Source of the DNA: an archaeon
GTDB taxonomy: Archaea > Nanobdellota > Nanobdellia > SCGC-AAA011-G17 > GW2011-AR18
Assembly (NCBI GenBank): GCA_023245565.1
Contig: JAHFKB010000005.1
Location: 1 to 39,973, forward strand
Length of the DNA stretch: 39,973 nt
Reading direction: 5' to 3'
The stretch's first letter is position 1; each line of letters begins with the position of its first letter. Below, piece by piece: positions 16,804-31,637 of the stretch. Under the pieces are notes generated by a model. It searched no databases and had not been told where the DNA came from. It was given only the letters and a program-made list of their open reading frames with translations. A program made the position numbers and the translations under genes.

Positions 16804-16853
16804 AACTTTTCCAAAAACCTTATAAATTGTTTTTTAATCCTAAGTCTACTAAA

Positions 16854-17552
16854 ATGGGAAAGAAACAAACAGTTGATGCTTTAGTTGATGGTGGAAAAGC
16901 TAGTGCAGGCCCACCAATTGGAAGTTCACTTGGACCTTTAAAAGTTAATATAGGTCAAGTTGTAAGTCAGATTAATGATATGACTAAAGATTTCAAAGGT
17001 ATGAAAGTTCCTGTTAAAATTATTGTTGATACTGAAGACAAATCATTTACAATTACAATAGGTACTCCTCCTGCTACTCAATTACTTATGAAAGAAATTG
17101 GGATAGAGAAAGGTTCTGGTGAACCACATATAAATAAATCTGGAGTTATTTCTTTTGAGCAAGTAATAAAAGTTGCTAAGATGAAATCTTCTTCTTTAAT
17201 TGTTAATAATTTAAAATCTGCAGTAAAAACAATTGTTGGAAGTTGTCAATCTGCTGGAGTATTAATTGATGGAAAAGATGCAAGAGATATTTTAAAAGAA
17301 ATTAATCAAGGAAAATATGATGCTTTAATAAAATCAGAAAAGACAGAAACTGATCCTGAAAAGATGAAAGAGCTTGAAGCTATGGGTAAAGAATTAGAAT
17401 CTAAGAAAAAACAAGTTGAAAAACAAAAAGCAGAAGTTAAAGCAGCAAAAGAAGCTGAGACGGCAGCAAAAGCAGCAGCTAATGCACCTGCGGCAGGAAC
17501 AGCACCAGCAACTGGAACTGCGCCTCCAAAGAAAGAACCTGCTAAGAAGTAA
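16854..17552 (+). CDS. rpl11: 50S ribosomal protein L11 with a ~70-aa Lys/Glu/Ala/Pro-rich C-terminal extension
   Basis: MGKKQTVDALVDGGKASAGPPIGSSLGPLKVNIG has the canonical L11 N-terminal domain. The track start at 16827 is TTG; I prefer the ATG at 16854. Confidence 0.94.
   Translation: MGKKQTVDALVDGGKASAGPPIGSSLGPLKVNIGQVVSQINDMTKDFKGMKVPVKIIVDTEDKSFTITIGTPPATQLLMKEIGIEKGSGEPHINKSGVISFEQVIKVAKMKSSSLIVNNLKSAVKTIVGSCQSAGVLIDGKDARDILKEINQGKYDALIKSEKTETDPEKMKELEAMGKELESKKKQVEKQKAEVKAAKEAETAAKAAANAPAAGTAPATGTAPPKKEPAKK
16959..17023 (+). repeat. rpl11-internal copy of the 65-bp repeat (partner at 16338..16402)
   Basis: See the partner entry. Confidence 0.9.
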
Positions 17553-18508: not shown

Positions 18509-18635
18509 TTTTTGTTAAGTAAAATTCATTTATATTCTAGAAAATATACTTTATTATTCAAATGATGACGACACGACAAGGAAGTTGCGCGTAGAATTTA
18601 TAAAGGAAAATTCTAATAATATTTTATTGAAAAGG
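18509..18635 (+). repeat. 127-bp promoter/leader repeat, copy 2 (partner at 5941..6067)
   Basis: See copy 1. The mini-ORF here is at 18562..18594. Confidence 0.85.
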
Positions 18636-19439
18636 TACACTATTACGCAAGAATTTAGGAATTGTATAAGATCAAACAATTATAGTATGGATCAATTATT
18701 AAATTTAACAGGCATTCAAGTACGTAATATACTTTATAAGAATAAAAGTATTAATGAAAAACATTTAAAATTATTATCAAAATTTTTGAAAATAAAAAAT
18801 ATTAAACTGAAAGAAATAGAATTTGACAATACTAAAAATTTAGGAAAATATGCTTACACAGAACCTATAATTTTAACAAGAAATAAGAAAATTTTATCTG
18901 AATTTATAGGCATAATGTTAGGTGACGGAAATATTTATAAGAATACAACAAATATTGCTTTTGATAAAAGAAATAAAAGTTATATTAAATATACTAAAAT
19001 ATTAGCTAGGAATTGTTTTGGTGTAAATTTTAAATTTAAAGAATTAAAGAAAAATAATGGAGCATATATCTATTTCTATAATAAATATCTTACTCAAAAT
19101 TTATTAGATTTAGGATTAAAAAGGGGGAATAAAATAAAAAACCAGTTAGGAATACCTAAATGGATAATAAAAAACCAAAAGTATTCTAAAATGTGCCTTA
19201 GGGGGCTCATAGATACAGACGGAAGTATCTTTTTTGCTAAGAGAGACAATGCTTTATATATAGATTTTACAAATCATAACCAAAAACTCATGAAAGATTT
19301 TAAATTTATTACTAAAAATTTAGGATATCCTTTTGTGAAATGTAAAGAAACTAATGTATGTTTATATCAGAAAAAAGAAGTCGTAAGATTTATTAACGAT
19401 ATTAGACCACTAAAAGGAATTAATGGGGCTATAATCTAA
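18585..19439 (+). CDS. double-motif LAGLIDADG homing endonuclease with an N-terminal HTH-like region
   Basis: There are two LAGLIDADG motifs, LSEFIGIMLGDGNI and MCLRGLIDTDGSI, about 100 aa apart. The start is uncertain: TTG at 18585, with no ATG before codon 35. The last 15 nt overlap tRNA-Pro. Confidence 0.85.
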   Translation: MRVEFIKENSNNILLKRYTITQEFRNCIRSNNYSMDQLLNLTGIQVRNILYKNKSINEKHLKLLSKFLKIKNIKLKEIEFDNTKNLGKYAYTEPIILTRNKKILSEFIGIMLGDGNIYKNTTNIAFDKRNKSYIKYTKILARNCFGVNFKFKELKKNNGAYIYFYNKYLTQNLLDLGLKRGNKIKNQLGIPKWIIKNQKYSKMCLRGLIDTDGSIFFAKRDNALYIDFTNHNQKLMKDFKFITKNLGYPFVKCKETNVCLYQKKEVVRFINDIRPLKGINGAII

Positions 19440-24949: not shown

Positions 24950-25693
24950 TTATTCTTTACTAGATAACCACAACCTGTTAAATATTTGTCTGTAAGAATT
25001 TGCAACATGTTCATTATTAATTATTGTTGTGGTTGGTTTTTCTGTCCAGACTACAAAAGCAACTTTATTCCCATAAATGACAGTTTCAGTTAATGGTTCA
25101 AAATCTTCATCTAAAAATTTAAGTTCAATAAATTTCTCAGGTACAATATTTTTCCAACGTCTTAATGATTTATGAAATATCATTTTTGCTTTTATCTTAT
25201 ATTCTTTTTGTTTTACATGTAAATTTTGCCAATAAAAATCTTCAATAATTACTTCTGATTCTTTTGGAGAACCAAATACTAAATAATCTAATTTTTCATT
25301 TATTATTTCTGAATAAATTTGTTTTACTCCAGAAATACCCCTAAATACCATTGCTGTTTCTTTAATATGAATATGTTTCTTAACTAATTGAACTTCTCTT
25401 GCTAATTGTTTTGCAATATTTTCTTGTTGTTGTAATTCTTCTTTCTTTTTTTCGACATAGTCTATTAGCGCTTCTGGTTTTTGTAACTGATATATACGTT
25501 TATTTCCTTCAATAATTTTAGAGATAATTCCTTTTTCACAAAGCCTTTCTAAAGCATCATAAGTATTTCCTTTGTAAAATCCAGTTTCTTCTATTAGCTT
25601 TTGTACTTCAGAAGCACCAATTCTTAATAATGCAAGGTATAAGGTGGCTTCAGCTTGAGATAGTCCTAATTTTTTTAGATCTTCTACTTTCAT
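24950..25693 (-). CDS. TrmB-family transcriptional regulator
   Basis: 247 aa. The N-terminal winged HTH is LGLSQAEATLYLALLRIGASEVQKLIEETGFYKGNTYDALERLCEKGII, followed by a C-terminal effector-type domain. Confidence 0.87.
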   Translation of the reverse strand: MKVEDLKKLGLSQAEATLYLALLRIGASEVQKLIEETGFYKGNTYDALERLCEKGIISKIIEGNKRIYQLQKPEALIDYVEKKKEELQQQENIAKQLAREVQLVKKHIHIKETAMVFRGISGVKQIYSEIINEKLDYLVFGSPKESEVIIEDFYWQNLHVKQKEYKIKAKMIFHKSLRRWKNIVPEKFIELKFLDEDFEPLTETVIYGNKVAFVVWTEKPTTTIINNEHVANSYRQIFNRLWLSSKE

Positions 25694-25750
25694 AGTAGTA
25701 CTTTCTAAATACTACTTAAATAAATATACTTCTGACTACTTCTTAGTAGT

Positions 25751-26425
25751 ATGGTATTAACAATGGGGAACTATGATGAATTTGCACTGGAATATGCAGA
25801 TAAAACTGCATCTATGGAACAAGAACTTAGAAAACATTTCTATTCTTTACTTCCAGATCTAAAGGGTAAAACTTTACTTGATGTGGGTTGTGGTTCTGGA
25901 CATGATGCAGAATATTATGTAAATAAAGGTGCAAAAGTTTCAGGAATAGACATATCAGAAAATGAAATTGAATTAGCAAAGAAAAAAACAAATGGTAATT
26001 TTATTGTTGGAAATATGAATAATTTGCATTATGAAAATAATTCATTTGATGTGGTTACTAGTTTTTATGCATTACAAACTTCAGATGATGTTCCTAAAGC
26101 ACTTAGTGAAATGATAAGAGTTGCAAAGCCTAATGCAAGAATTGTTATAGTTACAAAACACCCTACTAGGAACTTATTGGAAAGTTATGTAAATGATAAA
26201 AATTTAGATTACTATGCAAAAAGAAAAGTTACTTCTTATATTTTTAATAAAAGTATAAAACTTTCTGAACCTGGACATACAATGATGGATTACTTATCTG
26301 CTTCTGTTTTAGATAAATCTAAACTTGAAGTTTTTGAAGAACATACAGATTTTCCTGCAAGTGAACAAGTTGTTCCTGGATTAATTTATCCAACTTTAAT
26401 GATTTTAAAATATAGAAAACAATAG
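25751..26425 (+). CDS. class I SAM-dependent methyltransferase
   Basis: 224 aa. Motif I is LLDVGCGSGHDA, post-I is GIDISE, followed by FDVVTSFYAL. Confidence 0.88.
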   Translation: MVLTMGNYDEFALEYADKTASMEQELRKHFYSLLPDLKGKTLLDVGCGSGHDAEYYVNKGAKVSGIDISENEIELAKKKTNGNFIVGNMNNLHYENNSFDVVTSFYALQTSDDVPKALSEMIRVAKPNARIVIVTKHPTRNLLESYVNDKNLDYYAKRKVTSYIFNKSIKLSEPGHTMMDYLSASVLDKSKLEVFEEHTDFPASEQVVPGLIYPTLMILKYRKQ

Positions 26426-26435
26426 GAGGAATAAA

Positions 26436-26549
26436 ATGCCACCGTCAGGATTTAGTCAAAAAGCAATAAATGGATTATTAATGTTTATTGGAGCTTTTTA
26501 TGAAGATCTTCTTAAAGAAATTAAAGAAGAAAAACATAAAGAATCTTAA
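26436..26549 (+). CDS. 37-aa micro-ORF with a strong Shine-Dalgarno sequence
   Basis: AATAGGAGGAATAAA precedes the ATG. The peptide is MPPSGFSQKAINGLLMFIGAFYEDLLKEIKEEKHKES. Confidence 0.3.
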   Translation: MPPSGFSQKAINGLLMFIGAFYEDLLKEIKEEKHKES

Positions 26550-26606
26550 GCTATTGCAAAAGAATTGAAAAATATAAATGATTACTTAAAAAATTTTAAG
26601 TTGTGA

Positions 26607-27359
26607 TTATTTAAATGCAACTTCAATATTTGATTTAATCATAGATTTAGGTCTTGCACCTGTTACTCTAGCAATTTCTTTTCCATCTTTAAACATAATA
26701 AAAGTTGGAATTCCTAAAACACTTAATCTTTGAGCTATGTTTTGATTGTCGTCAACATTTAATTTTGCAAATTTAACTTCTTTCATTTCTTTACTTAATT
26801 CTTCAAATATTGGAGACATAGCTTTACAAGGGCCGCAATTATGAGCTAAAAATCCATTTGCTATAAAATTATGATTATTTTCCATAGATATTTTCTGAAC
26901 TGATTTTAGATAAATTTCTTTAGTTTCCTTAATATTCTCCCAAGCAAGGCCTTTTGGAAGATCTTTTTCTATTTTTTCCCATTTATCTTTATCAAATTCC
27001 AGCATAACTGCGACTTTTTCATTTTTTTTTAATTCTTCAGCCTTTTTCCAACCTTTTGGCGTGAGAAATTCATGTTCATCTGTGACTTTTATTTTCCTTT
27101 CGCTCTCTGTAATAATTTCTTTACAATGTCCTAAAATATTTGATGTAAAAGATTTTTTAACTTTATCAGGAGTAATTTCTTTTCCATTATATGTTAATAA
27201 TATATCTGTATTATTTATTTCTTTAGCTAATTTAGGAATATTATCTGAAGTTAAAATTTGTGTTGATTCTTCAATACACCACTCTGCCCAAAGATCTATA
27301 ACTAAAAGTTTATTTTCTTTTATTTCTTTATTAAAATTATCTGAATTTAGTTCTAACAT
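26607..27359 (-). CDS. trxA: thioredoxin interrupted by a mini-intein at the active site
   Basis: The exteins (27 aa + 76 aa) join to give ..VIDLWAEW|CGPCKAMSPIFEEL..., a canonical WCGPC thioredoxin of 103 aa. Confidence 0.9.
   Translation of the reverse strand: MLELNSDNFNKEIKENKLLVIDLWAEWCIEESTQILTSDNIPKLAKEINNTDILLTYNGKEITPDKVKKSFTSNILGHCKEIITESERKIKVTDEHEFLTPKGWKKAEELKKNEKVAVMLEFDKDKWEKIEKDLPKGLAWENIKETKEIYLKSVQKISMENNHNFIANGFLAHNCGPCKAMSPIFEELSKEMKEVKFAKLNVDDNQNIAQRLSVLGIPTFIMFKDGKEIARVTGARPKSMIKSNIEVAFK
26838..27278 (-). mobile_element. 147-aa mini-intein (no endonuclease domain) in thioredoxin
   Basis: Block A is CIEESTQILT. Block B is KVTDEHEFLT (TxxH). Blocks F/G are VQKISMENNHNFIANGFLAHN, followed by +1 Cys. 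The coordinates were checked codon by codon. Confidence 0.85.
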
Positions 27360-27415
27360 TTTCTAATTGAAAATTTATTTCTTTATTAATCTTTTGTTTA
27401 ATTTTATGGAAATAT

Positions 27416-28507
27416 TTATTTTCTGAAAATTTTTGCAGGACGTACACCTAAATTCTTATTTGTGAAAAGCGGATCACTGCCGTAGCCTAGGTCCATACAA
27501 CCACCATAAAAATCAGCCCTGAACCTAGAGAAATCTCTATTTCTTGGAGGAAAATAATAAATTTCATGATTTTTTGATTCTTTTATAGGCAAACCTTGTG
27601 AATTACAATTTTCTAAATTAATATAACAATCTTTCATTAAACAATTATTCAATTCGGATTTGATTTCTGATATATTTGAACTTTCTTCAGGTTTAAATTT
27701 AGTAATTAAAAAAAATTTATTATTTATTTCTTCAAATCTTGCATTTAACCATTCTCCCCTAGATGGTTTTCTTTTTCCTAAAATTTCATCTAAAATAGTG
27801 TCAACTTCTTCTCTAGGAATTATATCACCATTTCCATCTAATACTTTTTCACCTGATTTTAATAATAAAACAAAATCTATAAATCTTCTTATATCTAACA
27901 TAAAGCAATCTTCTTTATTTAATAATTCTTGGCATTCATTCCAAGTTTTTCCTTTATGTTTAACTTCTTTGCTAATTAATAAACCATTGTTAGAAAAACC
28001 TCCATGTATTGCTTTAGATAAAAATATATAATTACTCAAAGATTTCTTATGTATTCTATAAATTAATTTTACTCTTTCTATAGGAATTATAAATTCAATT
28101 GATAATGTTTTTTTTAAATTTTCAATTTCTTTTTCAGCATAATCCCTTATTAAATCAATACCATAATCTTCTGCATAATTTTCATTAATATCTTTAACAT
28201 CTATTGTAATATTATCTATAAAAATAGTATTATGTTCCCTCCTATAAATCTCTATAAATTTACAATCTAAATTTATTTCAATATTAACTAGGTCTTTTTT
28301 AGGAATGAAGAATGATTCAGAAACTTTTATGAATATTATTTTTTTAATTTGATATTTTGCACCCAATTCTTGAGGAATAATTAATTGAGAAGATATATGA
28401 AATTTATAGTCTCTTGGATGGAAAATATTATTTGCTTTTTTCAAATAATCAATTAATGGCTGAGTTAATGCGTTTAATTTTAAAGGTATTTCTTTTAACG
28501 TATCCAT
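27416..28507 (-). CDS. hypothetical protein with a DUF1566/FGE-like C-terminal domain (paralog of 6280..7275)
   Basis: 363 aa. It contains KTWNECQELL..CFMLDIRRFIDFV and the C-terminal IYYFPPRN...YGGCMDLGYGSDPLFTNKNLGVRPAKIF. Confidence 0.65.
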   Translation of the reverse strand: MDTLKEIPLKLNALTQPLIDYLKKANNIFHPRDYKFHISSQLIIPQELGAKYQIKKIIFIKVSESFFIPKKDLVNIEINLDCKFIEIYRREHNTIFIDNITIDVKDINENYAEDYGIDLIRDYAEKEIENLKKTLSIEFIIPIERVKLIYRIHKKSLSNYIFLSKAIHGGFSNNGLLISKEVKHKGKTWNECQELLNKEDCFMLDIRRFIDFVLLLKSGEKVLDGNGDIIPREEVDTILDEILGKRKPSRGEWLNARFEEINNKFFLITKFKPEESSNISEIKSELNNCLMKDCYINLENCNSQGLPIKESKNHEIYYFPPRNRDFSRFRADFYGGCMDLGYGSDPLFTNKNLGVRPAKIFRK

Positions 28508-28537
28508 AATAATCTAAGAAATTAATAATATAAAAAA

Positions 28538-31108
28538 TTAACTACATTCAGAATGTCCGCAGTCTAGACATGTTGGAGAAGAACAACCATTTATGTATTC
28601 AACATTTGGAGAATAACATTTTGGACAGTGTTGTTGTTTTACTTCTATTTTTAAATCTGTTAATCTTATTTGTTCTTTATCTCCAACTTTTCCATTTTTT
28701 TCTAAGTGTCTTTTAAGAGCTAATGCAATTGCATGTGGTATTGATTCAATTCTATTAGGACCAAATCCTAGAGGACGATCTCCTTTAATTGAATTAAGAT
28801 GTTTAATTGCATTCTTTGGATCATATCCTGCTTGTATTGCTTTAGATAAAAATATTCCTAAAACAGAAGTTAAACCTGATAATTCTGTTCCTATAGGAGA
28901 GATTGAAGTAAATATTTTTGATGGGCCTTCTTTATCATGAACAATATTTATATGTAAAGGACCATTTCCTGTTTCAATCTCATAATAATCTGAAGAAACT
29001 CCTTTAGTAAAGTCTATGTCTTTTTTCTTAACTTCTTCTTTTTTTATTTGTACTGTTTTAGAAGAAGTAGACTGACTTAAATTTAAAACTTGAACTTCTT
29101 TACAACCATCTCTGTAAACAGTTACACCTTTACATCCTGCTTTGTAAGCATATAAATATGCTTCTTTAATATCTTCTACACTTACATTTTTAGACATGTT
29201 AATTGTTTTTGAAACAGCATTGTCTGTATTTCTTTGGAATCCTGCTTGATGATCAATATGTGTTCTCCAAGGAGTATCGTGAGATGATGTAAATATTCTT
29301 TGTATGTTTGTTGGAATTTCTTTTATTCCACGTACAGAGGAATGATTATCTGCAATTTTTTTTAGTAAAGTATTTTTATCTAATCCAAACCAATTATATT
29401 GTTCTGCTGTTTCTAAAAATGCAGGAACAACTTCATAATAAACATATTTTGGATCTGGTTCTTTTCCTTCTTTTAATGAATCAACTGCTTCTGCTTGAAA
29501 ACGTTTGTATGCAATTGCAAAGAAAGGCTCAATACCAGAACCTTGTAGGCCTGCTGTTATTGCAATAGTTCCAGTAGGAGCAATTGTTGTTCTTGCACAA
29601 TTTCTTGGACGTGCTACTTGTCCTCTAAAATATTCTCCTTTTTCATCATAAATACTATCTTTGAAATTATAGAAAACTCCTCTTTTTTCAGCTAGTTCTT
29701 CAGATGATTCTAGAGATTTAAGATTTATAAAACTCATAATTTCTTCTGCTAAAGTTATTGCTTCTTCTGAATCATAAGGTATTTCTAATTTAATTAACAT
29801 CTCTGCCCAACCCATGACTCCTAAACCTATACGTCTATTTCCTTTTGACATTTGTTCAATTTCTGGAAGAACATACATACTCATGTCAATTACATTATCT
29901 AAAAAATGTGTTGCTAATTTTGCTGTATATTCTAATTTTTGATAATCAACAACATATTTTGCATCTAATTTTTTTACATGATTAGAAAGATTAATACTTC
30001 CTAAAGTGCATGGTTCCCATGGAAGTAATGGTTGTTCACCGCAAGGATTTGTACTTTCTATTTGTCCTAATTTTGGTGTTGGGTTTGAATGTGTATTATT
30101 TATTCTATCAATAACAACAAAACCTGGATCTCCTGTTTCCCAAGCGCATTTTGCCATTAAATCAAACATTTCTTTTGCTTTTTCTCTACCTACAATTTTT
30201 TTTGATTTTGGACTTACTAATTCTATTTCAGAATCATTTTCAACTGCTTTGAAAAATTCTTCATCTAGAGCAACTGAAATATTAAAGTTTTGTAAAAAAC
30301 CTCTGTCTTTTGATTTAGATGTTATAAATTTTTTTATATCTGGGTGTTTGTAATACATAATACCCATATTTGCTCCTCTTCTTGTTCCACCTTGTCTTAC
30401 AACATCAGTAGATGTGTCAAAAATTCTAATAAAAGACATAGGACCTGAAGCTACTCCTTTTGTAGACTGTACTGGATCTCCTTCTGGTCTTACTTTAGAA
30501 AATGAGAAACCTGTTCCTCCACCAAATTGATGAATCATTGCCATTGCTGTTAGTGCATAATAAATTTCTTCAATAGAATCTCCTACTGGAAGAACAAAAC
30601 AAGCATGCAGGCCTTGTAGATCTCTACCTGCGTTCATTAAACAAGGAGAGTTTGGTAAAAAATCAAAATTAGATAACATATTGTAAATTTTTTCTTCTGT
30701 TTCCATTAATAATTTTGTAGCTCTTGAGTTTGTTTCAGCTAATTTTAACAAGTTTTGTTCAAATTTTTTAAAATTTGAAATTCTTTCATTTCTTTGCAAA
30801 CTTTTTAATTGAAATGATAATATGTGTGATTTTCTATCATCTTCAGAATTTAAAACTTCATATTTTATTCCATCTAAAAGTTGTTCTCTAGGAATTATTT
30901 CTTCATAATATAAATCAGCTAATGAAATATTTCTTGCAATTCTTCTTAACCATAATTCAACAGAATCTCCTCTTAAGTATTTATTTGCCATTACTTTAAG
31001 TTGATTTTCTGTAACTTTTACTTTTGGACCTTCTGAAGCTAATTCTTCAATTGATTTTAAAACTTCAAATGTAGAAACATGATCTTCTTTTTTTCTCTCA
31101 ATTTGCAT
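28538..31108 (-). CDS. nrdJ: ribonucleotide reductase, class II (adenosylcobalamin-dependent)
   Basis: 856 aa. It has NPCGEQPLLPWEPCTLGSINL, TIAPTGTI, and a C-terminal Cys-rich tail CPKC....C..C. I saw no intein. Confidence 0.95.
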   Translation of the reverse strand: MQIERKKEDHVSTFEVLKSIEELASEGPKVKVTENQLKVMANKYLRGDSVELWLRRIARNISLADLYYEEIIPREQLLDGIKYEVLNSEDDRKSHILSFQLKSLQRNERISNFKKFEQNLLKLAETNSRATKLLMETEEKIYNMLSNFDFLPNSPCLMNAGRDLQGLHACFVLPVGDSIEEIYYALTAMAMIHQFGGGTGFSFSKVRPEGDPVQSTKGVASGPMSFIRIFDTSTDVVRQGGTRRGANMGIMYYKHPDIKKFITSKSKDRGFLQNFNISVALDEEFFKAVENDSEIELVSPKSKKIVGREKAKEMFDLMAKCAWETGDPGFVVIDRINNTHSNPTPKLGQIESTNPCGEQPLLPWEPCTLGSINLSNHVKKLDAKYVVDYQKLEYTAKLATHFLDNVIDMSMYVLPEIEQMSKGNRRIGLGVMGWAEMLIKLEIPYDSEEAITLAEEIMSFINLKSLESSEELAEKRGVFYNFKDSIYDEKGEYFRGQVARPRNCARTTIAPTGTIAITAGLQGSGIEPFFAIAYKRFQAEAVDSLKEGKEPDPKYVYYEVVPAFLETAEQYNWFGLDKNTLLKKIADNHSSVRGIKEIPTNIQRIFTSSHDTPWRTHIDHQAGFQRNTDNAVSKTINMSKNVSVEDIKEAYLYAYKAGCKGVTVYRDGCKEVQVLNLSQSTSSKTVQIKKEEVKKKDIDFTKGVSSDYYEIETGNGPLHINIVHDKEGPSKIFTSISPIGTELSGLTSVLGIFLSKAIQAGYDPKNAIKHLNSIKGDRPLGFGPNRIESIPHAIALALKRHLEKNGKVGDKEQIRLTDLKIEVKQQHCPKCYSPNVEYINGCSSPTCLDCGHSECS

Positions 31109-31114
31109 TCTTTC

Positions 31115-31567
31115 TCACCTATCCTTTTTTAATAATCCTTGAATTTCTTTTTTGAAATCTTCTATATCTGCAAATTCTCTGTAGACAGAAGCAAATCTTA
31201 TGTATGCAACTTTATCAAGCTGCTTTAATTGTTTTGCAACTTCTTCACCAAGATCTTTGCTTTGGATTTCATTATCTTCTGATGTTCTTAATTTTGATTC
31301 AATTTTATTTACTATGTTGTTTATTTTTTCTAAAGGTATTGGTAATTTTTCACATGCTCTTGAAATGCCTTTTTTAAGTTTTTCTTTACTAAATAATTCA
31401 CGTCTGCCATCTTTTTTTATAATATATATTTGCAATGATTCTGCGTTTTCGTATGTTGTGAATCTTTTTTCACATTTTAGGCATTCTCTACGCCTTCTTG
31501 TTACATCTTCACTTTCCCTAGAGTCTATAACTTTAGTTTCTGAGTGGCCACAAAATATACATTTCAT
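31115..31567 (-). CDS. nrdR: transcriptional repressor NrdR
   Basis: 150 aa. MKCIFCGHSETKVIDSRES....RRRRECLKCEKRFTTYE is the NrdR zinc ribbon, followed by an ATP-cone. It lies 6 nt upstream of nrdJ. Confidence 0.95.
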   Translation of the reverse strand: MKCIFCGHSETKVIDSRESEDVTRRRRECLKCEKRFTTYENAESLQIYIIKKDGRRELFSKEKLKKGISRACEKLPIPLEKINNIVNKIESKLRTSEDNEIQSKDLGEEVAKQLKQLDKVAYIRFASVYREFADIEDFKKEIQGLLKKDR

Positions 31568-31590: not shown

Positions 31591-31606
31591 ACACCATATA
31601 TTGTGT
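31591..31606. promoter_or_regulatory. NrdR box 1 (ACACCATATATTGTGT)
   Basis: A 16-bp near-palindrome that matches the NrdR-box consensus acaCwAtATaTwGtgt as I recall it. It lies 24 bp upstream of the nrdR start. Confidence 0.6.
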
Positions 31607-31621
31607 TTTTATTAGTGAAAA

Positions 31622-31637
31622 CCACAAAATATAGTAT
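31622..31637. promoter_or_regulatory. NrdR box 2, weaker (CCACAAAATATAGTAT)
   Basis: About 13 of 16 positions match the same consensus. The centre is 31 bp from the centre of box 1, the usual tandem-box phasing. Confidence 0.4.

Follow-up and report, generated by a model that had tools for sequence, protein, structure and literature searches.

A predicted class-1 mini-intein in the active-site motif of an archaeal thioredoxin encoded beside a class II ribonucleotide reductase

The DNA analysed here is a contig of 39,973 nucleotides from an archaeon (JAHFKB010000005.1 of the NCBI GenBank assembly GCA_023245565.1, positions 1 to 39,973), which is referred to as the window in its whole length. 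It carries on its minus strand a gene in which the coding sequence of a thioredoxin is interrupted by that of a putative intein. A preliminary description, made from the letters alone, had claimed that a 103-amino acid thioredoxin is split between W and C of its WCGPC motif by a 147-amino acid Hint domain, and that the +1 nucleophile of the insert is the N-terminal active-site cysteine of the thioredoxin. Both claims are borne out by profile matches, structure models, homologues and synteny, and translation of the sub-ranges reproduced its coordinates and all quoted motifs exactly. The gene consists of the following parts:

26607..27359, minus strand: thioredoxin-intein precursor gene, 250 codons plus stop (open reading frame list, Pfam and NCBIfam matches)
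27279..27359, minus strand: N-extein, 27 amino acids, MLELNSDNFNKEIKENKLLVIDLWAEW, with the C-terminal end ...DLWAEW, whose last residue is the Trp of WCGPC (translation)
26838..27278, minus strand: putative class-1 mini-intein, 147 amino acids, CIEESTQILT...VTDEH...NHNFIANGFLAHN (translation, PF14890)
27276-27278 and 26838-26843, minus strand: limits of the intein, Cys1 and the C-terminal His-Asn, respectively
27123..27131, minus strand: family-specific G-H-C motif (Cys79 of the precursor, intein residue 52), not part of the canonical splicing blocks
27072..27083, minus strand: block B, T-D-E-H (Thr93 and His96 of the precursor)
26838..26900, minus strand: blocks F and G, VQKISMENNHNFIANGFLAHN (translation)
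26610..26837, minus strand: C-extein, 76 amino acids, beginning with CGPCKAM, in which CGPC occupies 26826-26837 (translation)

The Pfam family Thioredoxin (PF00085) matches the precursor in two stretches, the better of which covers residues 163-246 (E 7.9e-30, 103 bits; cut-off 23.5), and the NCBIfam thioredoxin model TIGR01068 scores 109 bits (cut-off 96.8) with the intein still in place. The N-extein can be aligned to the N-terminal region of intein-free thioredoxins; the C-extein begins with the thioredoxin nucleophile Cys+1 (Cys175) and the resolving cysteine Cys+4 (Cys178) and contains the cis-proline in the motif GIPT, with I217 and P218 being invariant in the family. In silico removal of residues 28-174 yields a 103-amino acid thioredoxin with a restored WCGPC motif, in which no residue is lost or gained. 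This in silico spliced protein is 51% identical to the intein-free protein P0007 (E 8e-35), to which it aligns end to end and ungapped across WCGPC, and its matches to thioredoxin structures, both archaeal and reconstructed ancestral ones, have E values of about 1e-30.

In the Hint/intein profile scan that the preliminary description had proposed, Pfam Intein_splicing (PF14890) was found in the precursor with 55.5 bits (E 7.5e-15; cut-off 35.8) and NCBIfam TIGR01443 (intein_Cterm) with 27.6 bits (cut-off 15.6), both above cut-off, and TIGR01445 (intein_Nterm) came out slightly below its own. An AlphaFold2 model of the precursor (pLDDT 76.8) lets both exteins jointly form a thioredoxin fold, which superimposes on solved thioredoxins with TM values of 0.84-0.90 and a root mean square deviation of about 2 Å; the insert in the same model matches RecA and DnaB mini-inteins. 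The lack of a predicted Hint fold had been named as a finding that would speak against an intein; the AlphaFold2 model of the intein alone (pLDDT 75.3) has hardly any matches other than inteins, BIL domains and hedgehog Hint domains (TM 0.5-0.6). By sequence, the nearest solved relatives of the intein are DnaB mini-inteins (1mi8, 2.2e-9).

The best sequence and fold matches are thus the DnaB-type mini-inteins (Ssp DnaB, 1mi8; Npu DnaB, 4o1r) and the Mtu RecA mini-intein. The insert shares with them the Hint fold, Cys1, TxxH, HNF.AN...HN and the +1 nucleophile as well as the size of about 140-160 amino acids that is left after loss of the endonuclease. Unlike these inteins, it has a thioredoxin as host, is inserted inside a CxxC motif, carries Lys at position F:4 and possesses an extra conserved His-Cys pair upstream of block B. 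The Hint profiles, Cys1, TxxH, His-Asn followed by Cys+1 and the gapless restoration of the host are those of a class-1 intein; the Asp at F:4, which is common, not universal, among class-1 inteins, is missing. A class-3 intein was ruled out by the presence of Cys1 and by a residue other than Cys at F:4.

A search for further thioredoxin alleles with an insertion at this site, as suggested in the preliminary description, recovered a family of complete and fragmentary members. Among 5.8 billion proteins, five further complete proteins consisting of thioredoxin and intein and one apparently truncated protein were found. When 1.84 billion representatives clustered at 50% identity were searched with a profile, 11 complete clusters, one with a mini-intein and ten of about 560-606 amino acids, and about 12 fragmentary clusters with identical W/C...HN/CxPC junctions (the slash marks the splice site) were obtained. 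The long intein versions of roughly 500 amino acids contain two LAGLIDADG motifs and a C-terminal helix-turn-helix (HTH) between the splicing halves. Such full-size alleles at the W/C site are present at locus L089 (603 amino acids) and in the proteins P0017-P0025, P0050 and P0094, and the majority of the family is still endonuclease-bearing. P0003 is an intermediate, which has kept the HTH alone (PF13384), and no endonuclease or HTH is left in the window copy, P0002, P0004 and P0005. Since most relatives carry the version with LAGLIDADG and HTH, the window mini-intein is, judged by these comparisons, a decayed remnant of a homing intein of this kind. The NCBI record of one homologue is labelled Pacearchaeota, and an empty-site allele, an intein-free thioredoxin downstream of nrdR and a ribonucleotide reductase (RNR) gene, is found in a Woesearchaeota metagenome-assembled genome (L046). 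Together with the very AT-rich composition of the window, these two records suggest a DPANN-type host.

In close relatives, the identity between the inteins is higher than that between the exteins (for instance, 64% versus 40% for P0017), which is in keeping with a mobile element passed horizontally from one diverged thioredoxin gene to another. That alleles with an endonuclease prevail indicates an element that is primarily selfish. Its position would likewise have selfish reasons, and a benefit for the host would not be needed, because homing endonucleases are directed at invariant stretches of DNA, and any loss of the intein that is not precise would ruin a motif the protein cannot do without. 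Among the viral contigs searched, no relative of the thioredoxin intein was found and hence no sign of a viral origin. A scan of GTDB with the full precursor alignment, in which one pattern was the generic VDFWAxWC, gave no intein-bearing locus among the matches listed, which are mostly ordinary thioredoxins, and has no bearing on the taxonomic spread. The long match at locus L067 was rejected as an intein candidate, as it consists of three tandem thioredoxins. Outside thioredoxin, the nearest relatives of the intein, among them P0063, P0139 and P0053, include proteins with four to seven tandem Hint/intein-like repeats, one of which has 5631 amino acids, and RpoB proteins of archaea that contain two or three inteins.

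A near-identical counterpart of the window locus is L090, a 3840-nucleotide contig from another sample, which differs from positions 25680-29519 of the window by 29 mismatches in all. Twenty-six of these lie within 266 nucleotides of the intein (26909..27174, about 10% divergence), none in the exteins and three in the flanks of 3.5 kb. Such a patch would be expected from an intein allele that recombined into an otherwise unchanged background, or from the mixing of strains in assembly. The latter, together with the metagenome-like, AT-rich character of the window (26% GC), would suit the view that the gene is an artefact of assembly or gene calling, in which a thioredoxin was joined to an unrelated Hint-domain gene. 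However, the same split architecture is present on independent contigs from at least nine samples, so that an assembly chimera, which the preliminary description had considered as a refutation, is excluded. Assemblies made independently of each other (ENA, JGI, Logan and NCBI) show this architecture in frame and with identical junctions. WCGPC is restored exactly, without a missing or extra residue, and the intein, with 25.6% GC, agrees in composition with the exteins (27.2%) and the window (26.2%). An artefact of either kind has next to no probability.

Between the window and the near-identical L090, 15 synonymous and 11 non-synonymous changes were counted in the intein. The resulting dN/dS of 0.15 indicates that the intein is under purifying selection. 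In an alignment of 16 members with identities down to 28%, W-1, Cys1, the block-B His, His-Asn, Cys+1, Pro and Cys+4 are invariant; in precursor numbering, the invariant residues include Cys28, F165, N168, H173, N174, C175, P177 and C178. The block-B Thr is present in 15 of the 16 members and the His in all of them. The hosts have kept the thioredoxin motifs at 34-59% identity among each other, and the open reading frame is uninterrupted in the window and at L090, L001, L004, L005, L086-88 and L089.

An interrupted allele was found at L002 (8001-9809) and L003 (1884-3692), which stem from two independent assemblies: the gene for a full-size intein contains a single in-frame TAG, which is GAG at L089 (7917-9722), this being the sole difference in 1806 nucleotides. 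The allele was called as two open reading frames of 431 and 159 amino acids, the second of which starts at an ATG 30 nucleotides past the stop, and it may represent either a null allele or a split intein in the making. A recent sweep, considered on the basis of the low number of mismatches between L002 and L089 in the thioredoxin gene, was dropped, as the mismatches are patchy across the whole locus.

Our preferred reading is that the insert is a genuine and splicing-competent class-1 mini-intein, a decayed homing intein that resides in the thioredoxin active-site motif of a DPANN-like archaeon, and we consider this very probable. Conservation and selection suggest that splicing occurs. Several observations weigh against this reading. 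The intein_Nterm model TIGR01445 reaches 21.8 bits, slightly under the cut-off of 24.5; the AlphaFold2 models are of moderate confidence (pLDDT 75-77), with the CGPC segment below 50; and the in-frame stop at L002 and L003 means that not every copy need be functional. Furthermore, F:4 of block F is Lys156 ('VQKISM') instead of the common Asp, and kinetics or side reactions may be unusual. This position is variable in the family (K/R/A/G/V/L/S), whereas related inteins of other hosts have Asp ('VYDL', 'VYDI').

With the F:4 Asp missing, a premature stop in a related allele and no endonuclease in the window copy, one could also regard the intein as dead, the gene being a thioredoxin pseudogene or coding for a permanently interrupted protein with another role. 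This is improbable: the residues essential for splicing are invariant in members that have diverged to 28% identity, the dN/dS is low, the exteins are intact and their thioredoxin motifs maintained, and the reading frame is uninterrupted in the window and, among the relatives, at L090, L001, L004, L005, L086-88 and L089.

If the mini-intein follows the standard class-1 mechanism, from which the steps are deduced, the 250-amino acid precursor would be translated first. Cys28, the Cys1 of the intein, would then undergo an N-S acyl shift, leading to a thioester at the Trp27-Cys28 bond, which would be attacked by Cys175 (+1). Cyclisation of Asn174 would release the intein, and an S-N shift would form the Trp-Cys bond and thereby the 103-amino acid thioredoxin with an intact WCGPC motif. 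As the active site is absent until this bond is made, splicing would be obligatory for thioredoxin function.

The thioredoxin gene is the last of a series of minus-strand genes in the order dCTP deaminases, ThyA, DHFR, NrdR, class II RNR, a 363-amino acid open reading frame and thioredoxin, with gaps of 6, 30 and 56 nucleotides from nrdR to the thioredoxin gene. The features concerned are:

31591-31606 and 31622-31637, minus strand: pair of NrdR-box-like palindromes with a spacing of 31 bp, immediately upstream of nrdR (pattern search)
31115..31567, minus strand: gene of the repressor NrdR, 6 nucleotides upstream of the RNR gene (Zn_ribbon_NrdR and ATP-cone domains)
28538..31108, minus strand: gene of a class II (B12-type) RNR, 856 amino acids, intein-free (PF02867 2.6e-122, PF00317, PF12637)
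27416..28507, minus strand: 363-amino acid open reading frame between the RNR and thioredoxin genes, 56 nucleotides upstream of the latter

The two palindromes are ACACAATATATGGTGT and ATACTATATTTTGTGG, which deviate from ACACWATATWTWGTGT by one and two mismatches, respectively; their count over the whole window is not above chance, and the case for them rests on tandem spacing and position. Their location upstream of nrdR would imply a bacterial-style NrdR regulon that comprises nrdR-nrdJ and probably the thioredoxin gene. The adjoining RNR had been described as intein-free, which holds, since its 856 amino acids contain only the Ribonuc_red_lgN/lgC and TSCPD domains. In the translation, its C-terminal part of about 30 codons, located after TSCPD, shows a six-cysteine array (CPKC...C....C..C....C), by which the enzyme is classified as the cysteine-rich-domain (CRD) type of class II RNR. 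The 363-amino acid open reading frame has no Pfam match and is shared with no strain but the near-identical L090; in the relatives, this slot contains NT5C, a DNA_alkylation protein or nothing.

The arrangement of the cluster varies between the relatives. At L001, an RNR with intein is followed by NT5C and a thioredoxin with an HTH intein, and at L086-88, a thioredoxin with a mini-intein comes directly after an RNR with intein. At L089, L002 and L003, a thioredoxin with a full intein directly follows an intein-free RNR, and at L004, a DNA_alkylation protein is encoded between RNR and thioredoxin. The thioredoxin intein of L095 lies in a class III RNR cluster, and two family members are found away from RNR, namely L093 (archaeal context, HisRS) and L094 (bacterial-type neighbours FtsH and DivIC). 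The RNR orthologues of L001 (3507-7196; 78% identical, 1229 amino acids) and L086 (4100-7855; about 70%, 1251 amino acids) carry a LAGLIDADG intein. As the RNRs of these relatives carry inteins and that of the window does not, the RNR and thioredoxin inteins seem to come and go independently in one cluster.

RNR is among the commonest intein hosts (PMC4760082). The inteins in the RNRs (NrdJ/NrdA) of archaea and bacteria share with the thioredoxin intein the pathway of deoxynucleoside triphosphate (dNTP) supply and the genomic neighbourhood; however, they reside in another host protein and are of another insertion-site family. At L001 and L086-88, the RNR next to the thioredoxin gene has an intein of its own, whereas in the window the RNR has none and the small redox partner is the intein host.

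The adjacency of the genes suggests that the mature thioredoxin may serve the RNR as reductant, and its conserved position directly downstream of a CRD-type RNR in several related archaea points to a dedicated reductant. The sole CRD-type NrdJ that has been studied biochemically is that of S. nassauensis; the thioredoxins and the glutaredoxin of this organism gave no activity (PMC5704485). The conserved pairing of a thioredoxin with a CRD class II RNR is a candidate answer to the question of which reductant serves these enzymes, and should be regarded as a lead and not as a confirmation.

Several inteins are known whose splicing is controlled by disulfides. Pab PolII forms a Cys1-Cys+1 disulfide, Pab MoaA and an engineered Ssp DnaE are trapped by Cys-3-Cys1, and that of Mma PolII is internal (PMC3922620); in Msm DnaBi1, the catalytic cysteine pairs with Cys48, which is non-catalytic and lies outside the splicing blocks (PMC6195587). 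The thioredoxin intein shares with these systems the cysteine nucleophiles at both junctions and further cysteines within reach, and its non-block cysteine at about position 50 is comparable to Cys48 of Msm DnaBi1. Unlike in these inteins, the partner cysteines form the CGPC redox centre, which would later be the enzyme's own active site, and redox control is hypothetical here. A redox coupling is chemically plausible: Cys+1 needs a free thiol for the second step, yet it is one half of the CGPC couple, and Cys1 is adjacent.

It is tempting to speculate that the intein has been domesticated as a redox switch, with splicing being gated by the thiols of Cys1, Cys+1, Cys+4 and possibly Cys79. Upon oxidation, a disulfide between Cys+1 and Cys+4, Cys1 and Cys+1 or Cys79 and Cys1 would block trans-thioesterification; without splicing, no new thioredoxin would mature, and dNTP synthesis by the co-transcribed RNR would stall. 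Mature reduced thioredoxin could in turn reduce the trapped precursor, leading to a self-reinforcing activation. Three to four cysteines do converge on the splice junction; however, thioredoxin function by itself, with or without an intein, accounts for the conservation of Cys+1 and Cys+4, and around the junction the model is not reliable enough for its geometry to be assessed. Of the 16 thioredoxin inteins, 14 have Cys79, which is absent at that position in related inteins of other hosts; by the register of the beta-hairpin, it should face Thr93 of block B, judging from the sequence and the modelled strands. Endonuclease-free mini-inteins persist in several diverged lineages, but such persistence is expected anyway, as precise deletion is rare, and most members retain the homing endonuclease that marks a selfish element. 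Although the precedents cited above and the position of the gene in an nrd cluster preceded by NrdR boxes are in line with a switch, redox dependence is purely hypothetical in the present case, and we regard a domesticated switch as unlikely.

The regulatory reading as a whole is similarly doubtful. A more specific version holds that the CGPC cysteines, Cys1 and Cys79 lock the oxidised precursor, so that maturation is redox-gated, active thioredoxin, and with it turnover of the co-transcribed CRD-type RNR, is obtained only in a reduced cell, and reduction of trapped precursor by mature thioredoxin gives a self-amplifying loop; its probability is slightly lower still. If it were true, an operon-encoded, dedicated thioredoxin would be indicated as the long-sought physiological reductant of CRD-type NrdJ.

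A second thioredoxin site, three codons downstream, is occupied in protein P0092 (L091, 8001-9389; an archaeon, NCBI GCA_964419095.1), with the junctions WCGP/C...VVHN/CRIF. The +1 residue of this intein is the resolving cysteine, its endonuclease matches PI-PkoII at 7.7e-11, and Pfam Intein_splicing does not detect it. The host gene appears to be orthologous to that of P0022, which has its intein at the W/C site, and downstream of both lie HisRS and a gene of the MJ0538 family. The P0092 intein is a separate invasion outside the family of the window intein; likewise, the likeness to PI-PkoII-like LAGLIDADG inteins concerns only the P0092 endonuclease, whose intein is inserted at WCGP/C and not at the W/C site of the window.

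Known inteins are mostly found in enzymes of replication, repair and dNTP synthesis. In the literature searched, thioredoxin occurs in intein work only as a fusion tag or model extein, which is consistent with the earlier statement that it is not among the classic intein hosts. Full-text literature searches and two intein surveys yielded no description of a natural thioredoxin intein, the supplementary tables of PMC4760082, which could list thioredoxin, being outside that scope. Public records overlook these inteins, which are annotated as 'thioredoxin domain-containing protein' (MCX6749073.1) or misnamed 'tRNA-splicing ligase RtcB'. On present evidence, thioredoxin would be a new host and insertion site for a well-known kind of element, of which a small family is visible in metagenomes. 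It extends the list of intein hosts by a small redox carrier, with the insertion exactly at the nucleophilic cysteine of CxxC, and insertion at W/CGPC speaks for the idea that the codons targeted by inteins are the most conserved catalytic ones. As the +1 nucleophile and its i+3 neighbour make up a redox couple that is among the best understood in biology, the protein offers a ready system for the question of natural redox-dependent splicing. Furthermore, an intein of 147 amino acids with a defined W/CGPC junction could be of use as a compact scaffold in the engineering of redox-responsive proteins.

The remainder of the window encodes an archaeal set of proteins, namely S8e, TFIIB, Cdc6/Orc1, aIF5A, Spt5-NGN, L11, prefoldin, deoxyhypusine synthase and ABCE1; an Rfam scan of the window gave no match at threshold and hence no rRNA or tRNA by which to place it taxonomically. 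A free-standing LAGLIDADG-type open reading frame of 284 amino acids (18585-19439, plus strand) lies downstream of the L11 gene. It was tried as a relic of the lost intein endonuclease and rejected, as the similarity is at the level of motifs only (E 0.007). The L11 open reading frame itself (16827-17552, plus strand; 241 amino acids, with a TTG start as listed) continues past the L11 domains into a tail rich in Lys, Ala, Glu and Pro (residues about 150-241).

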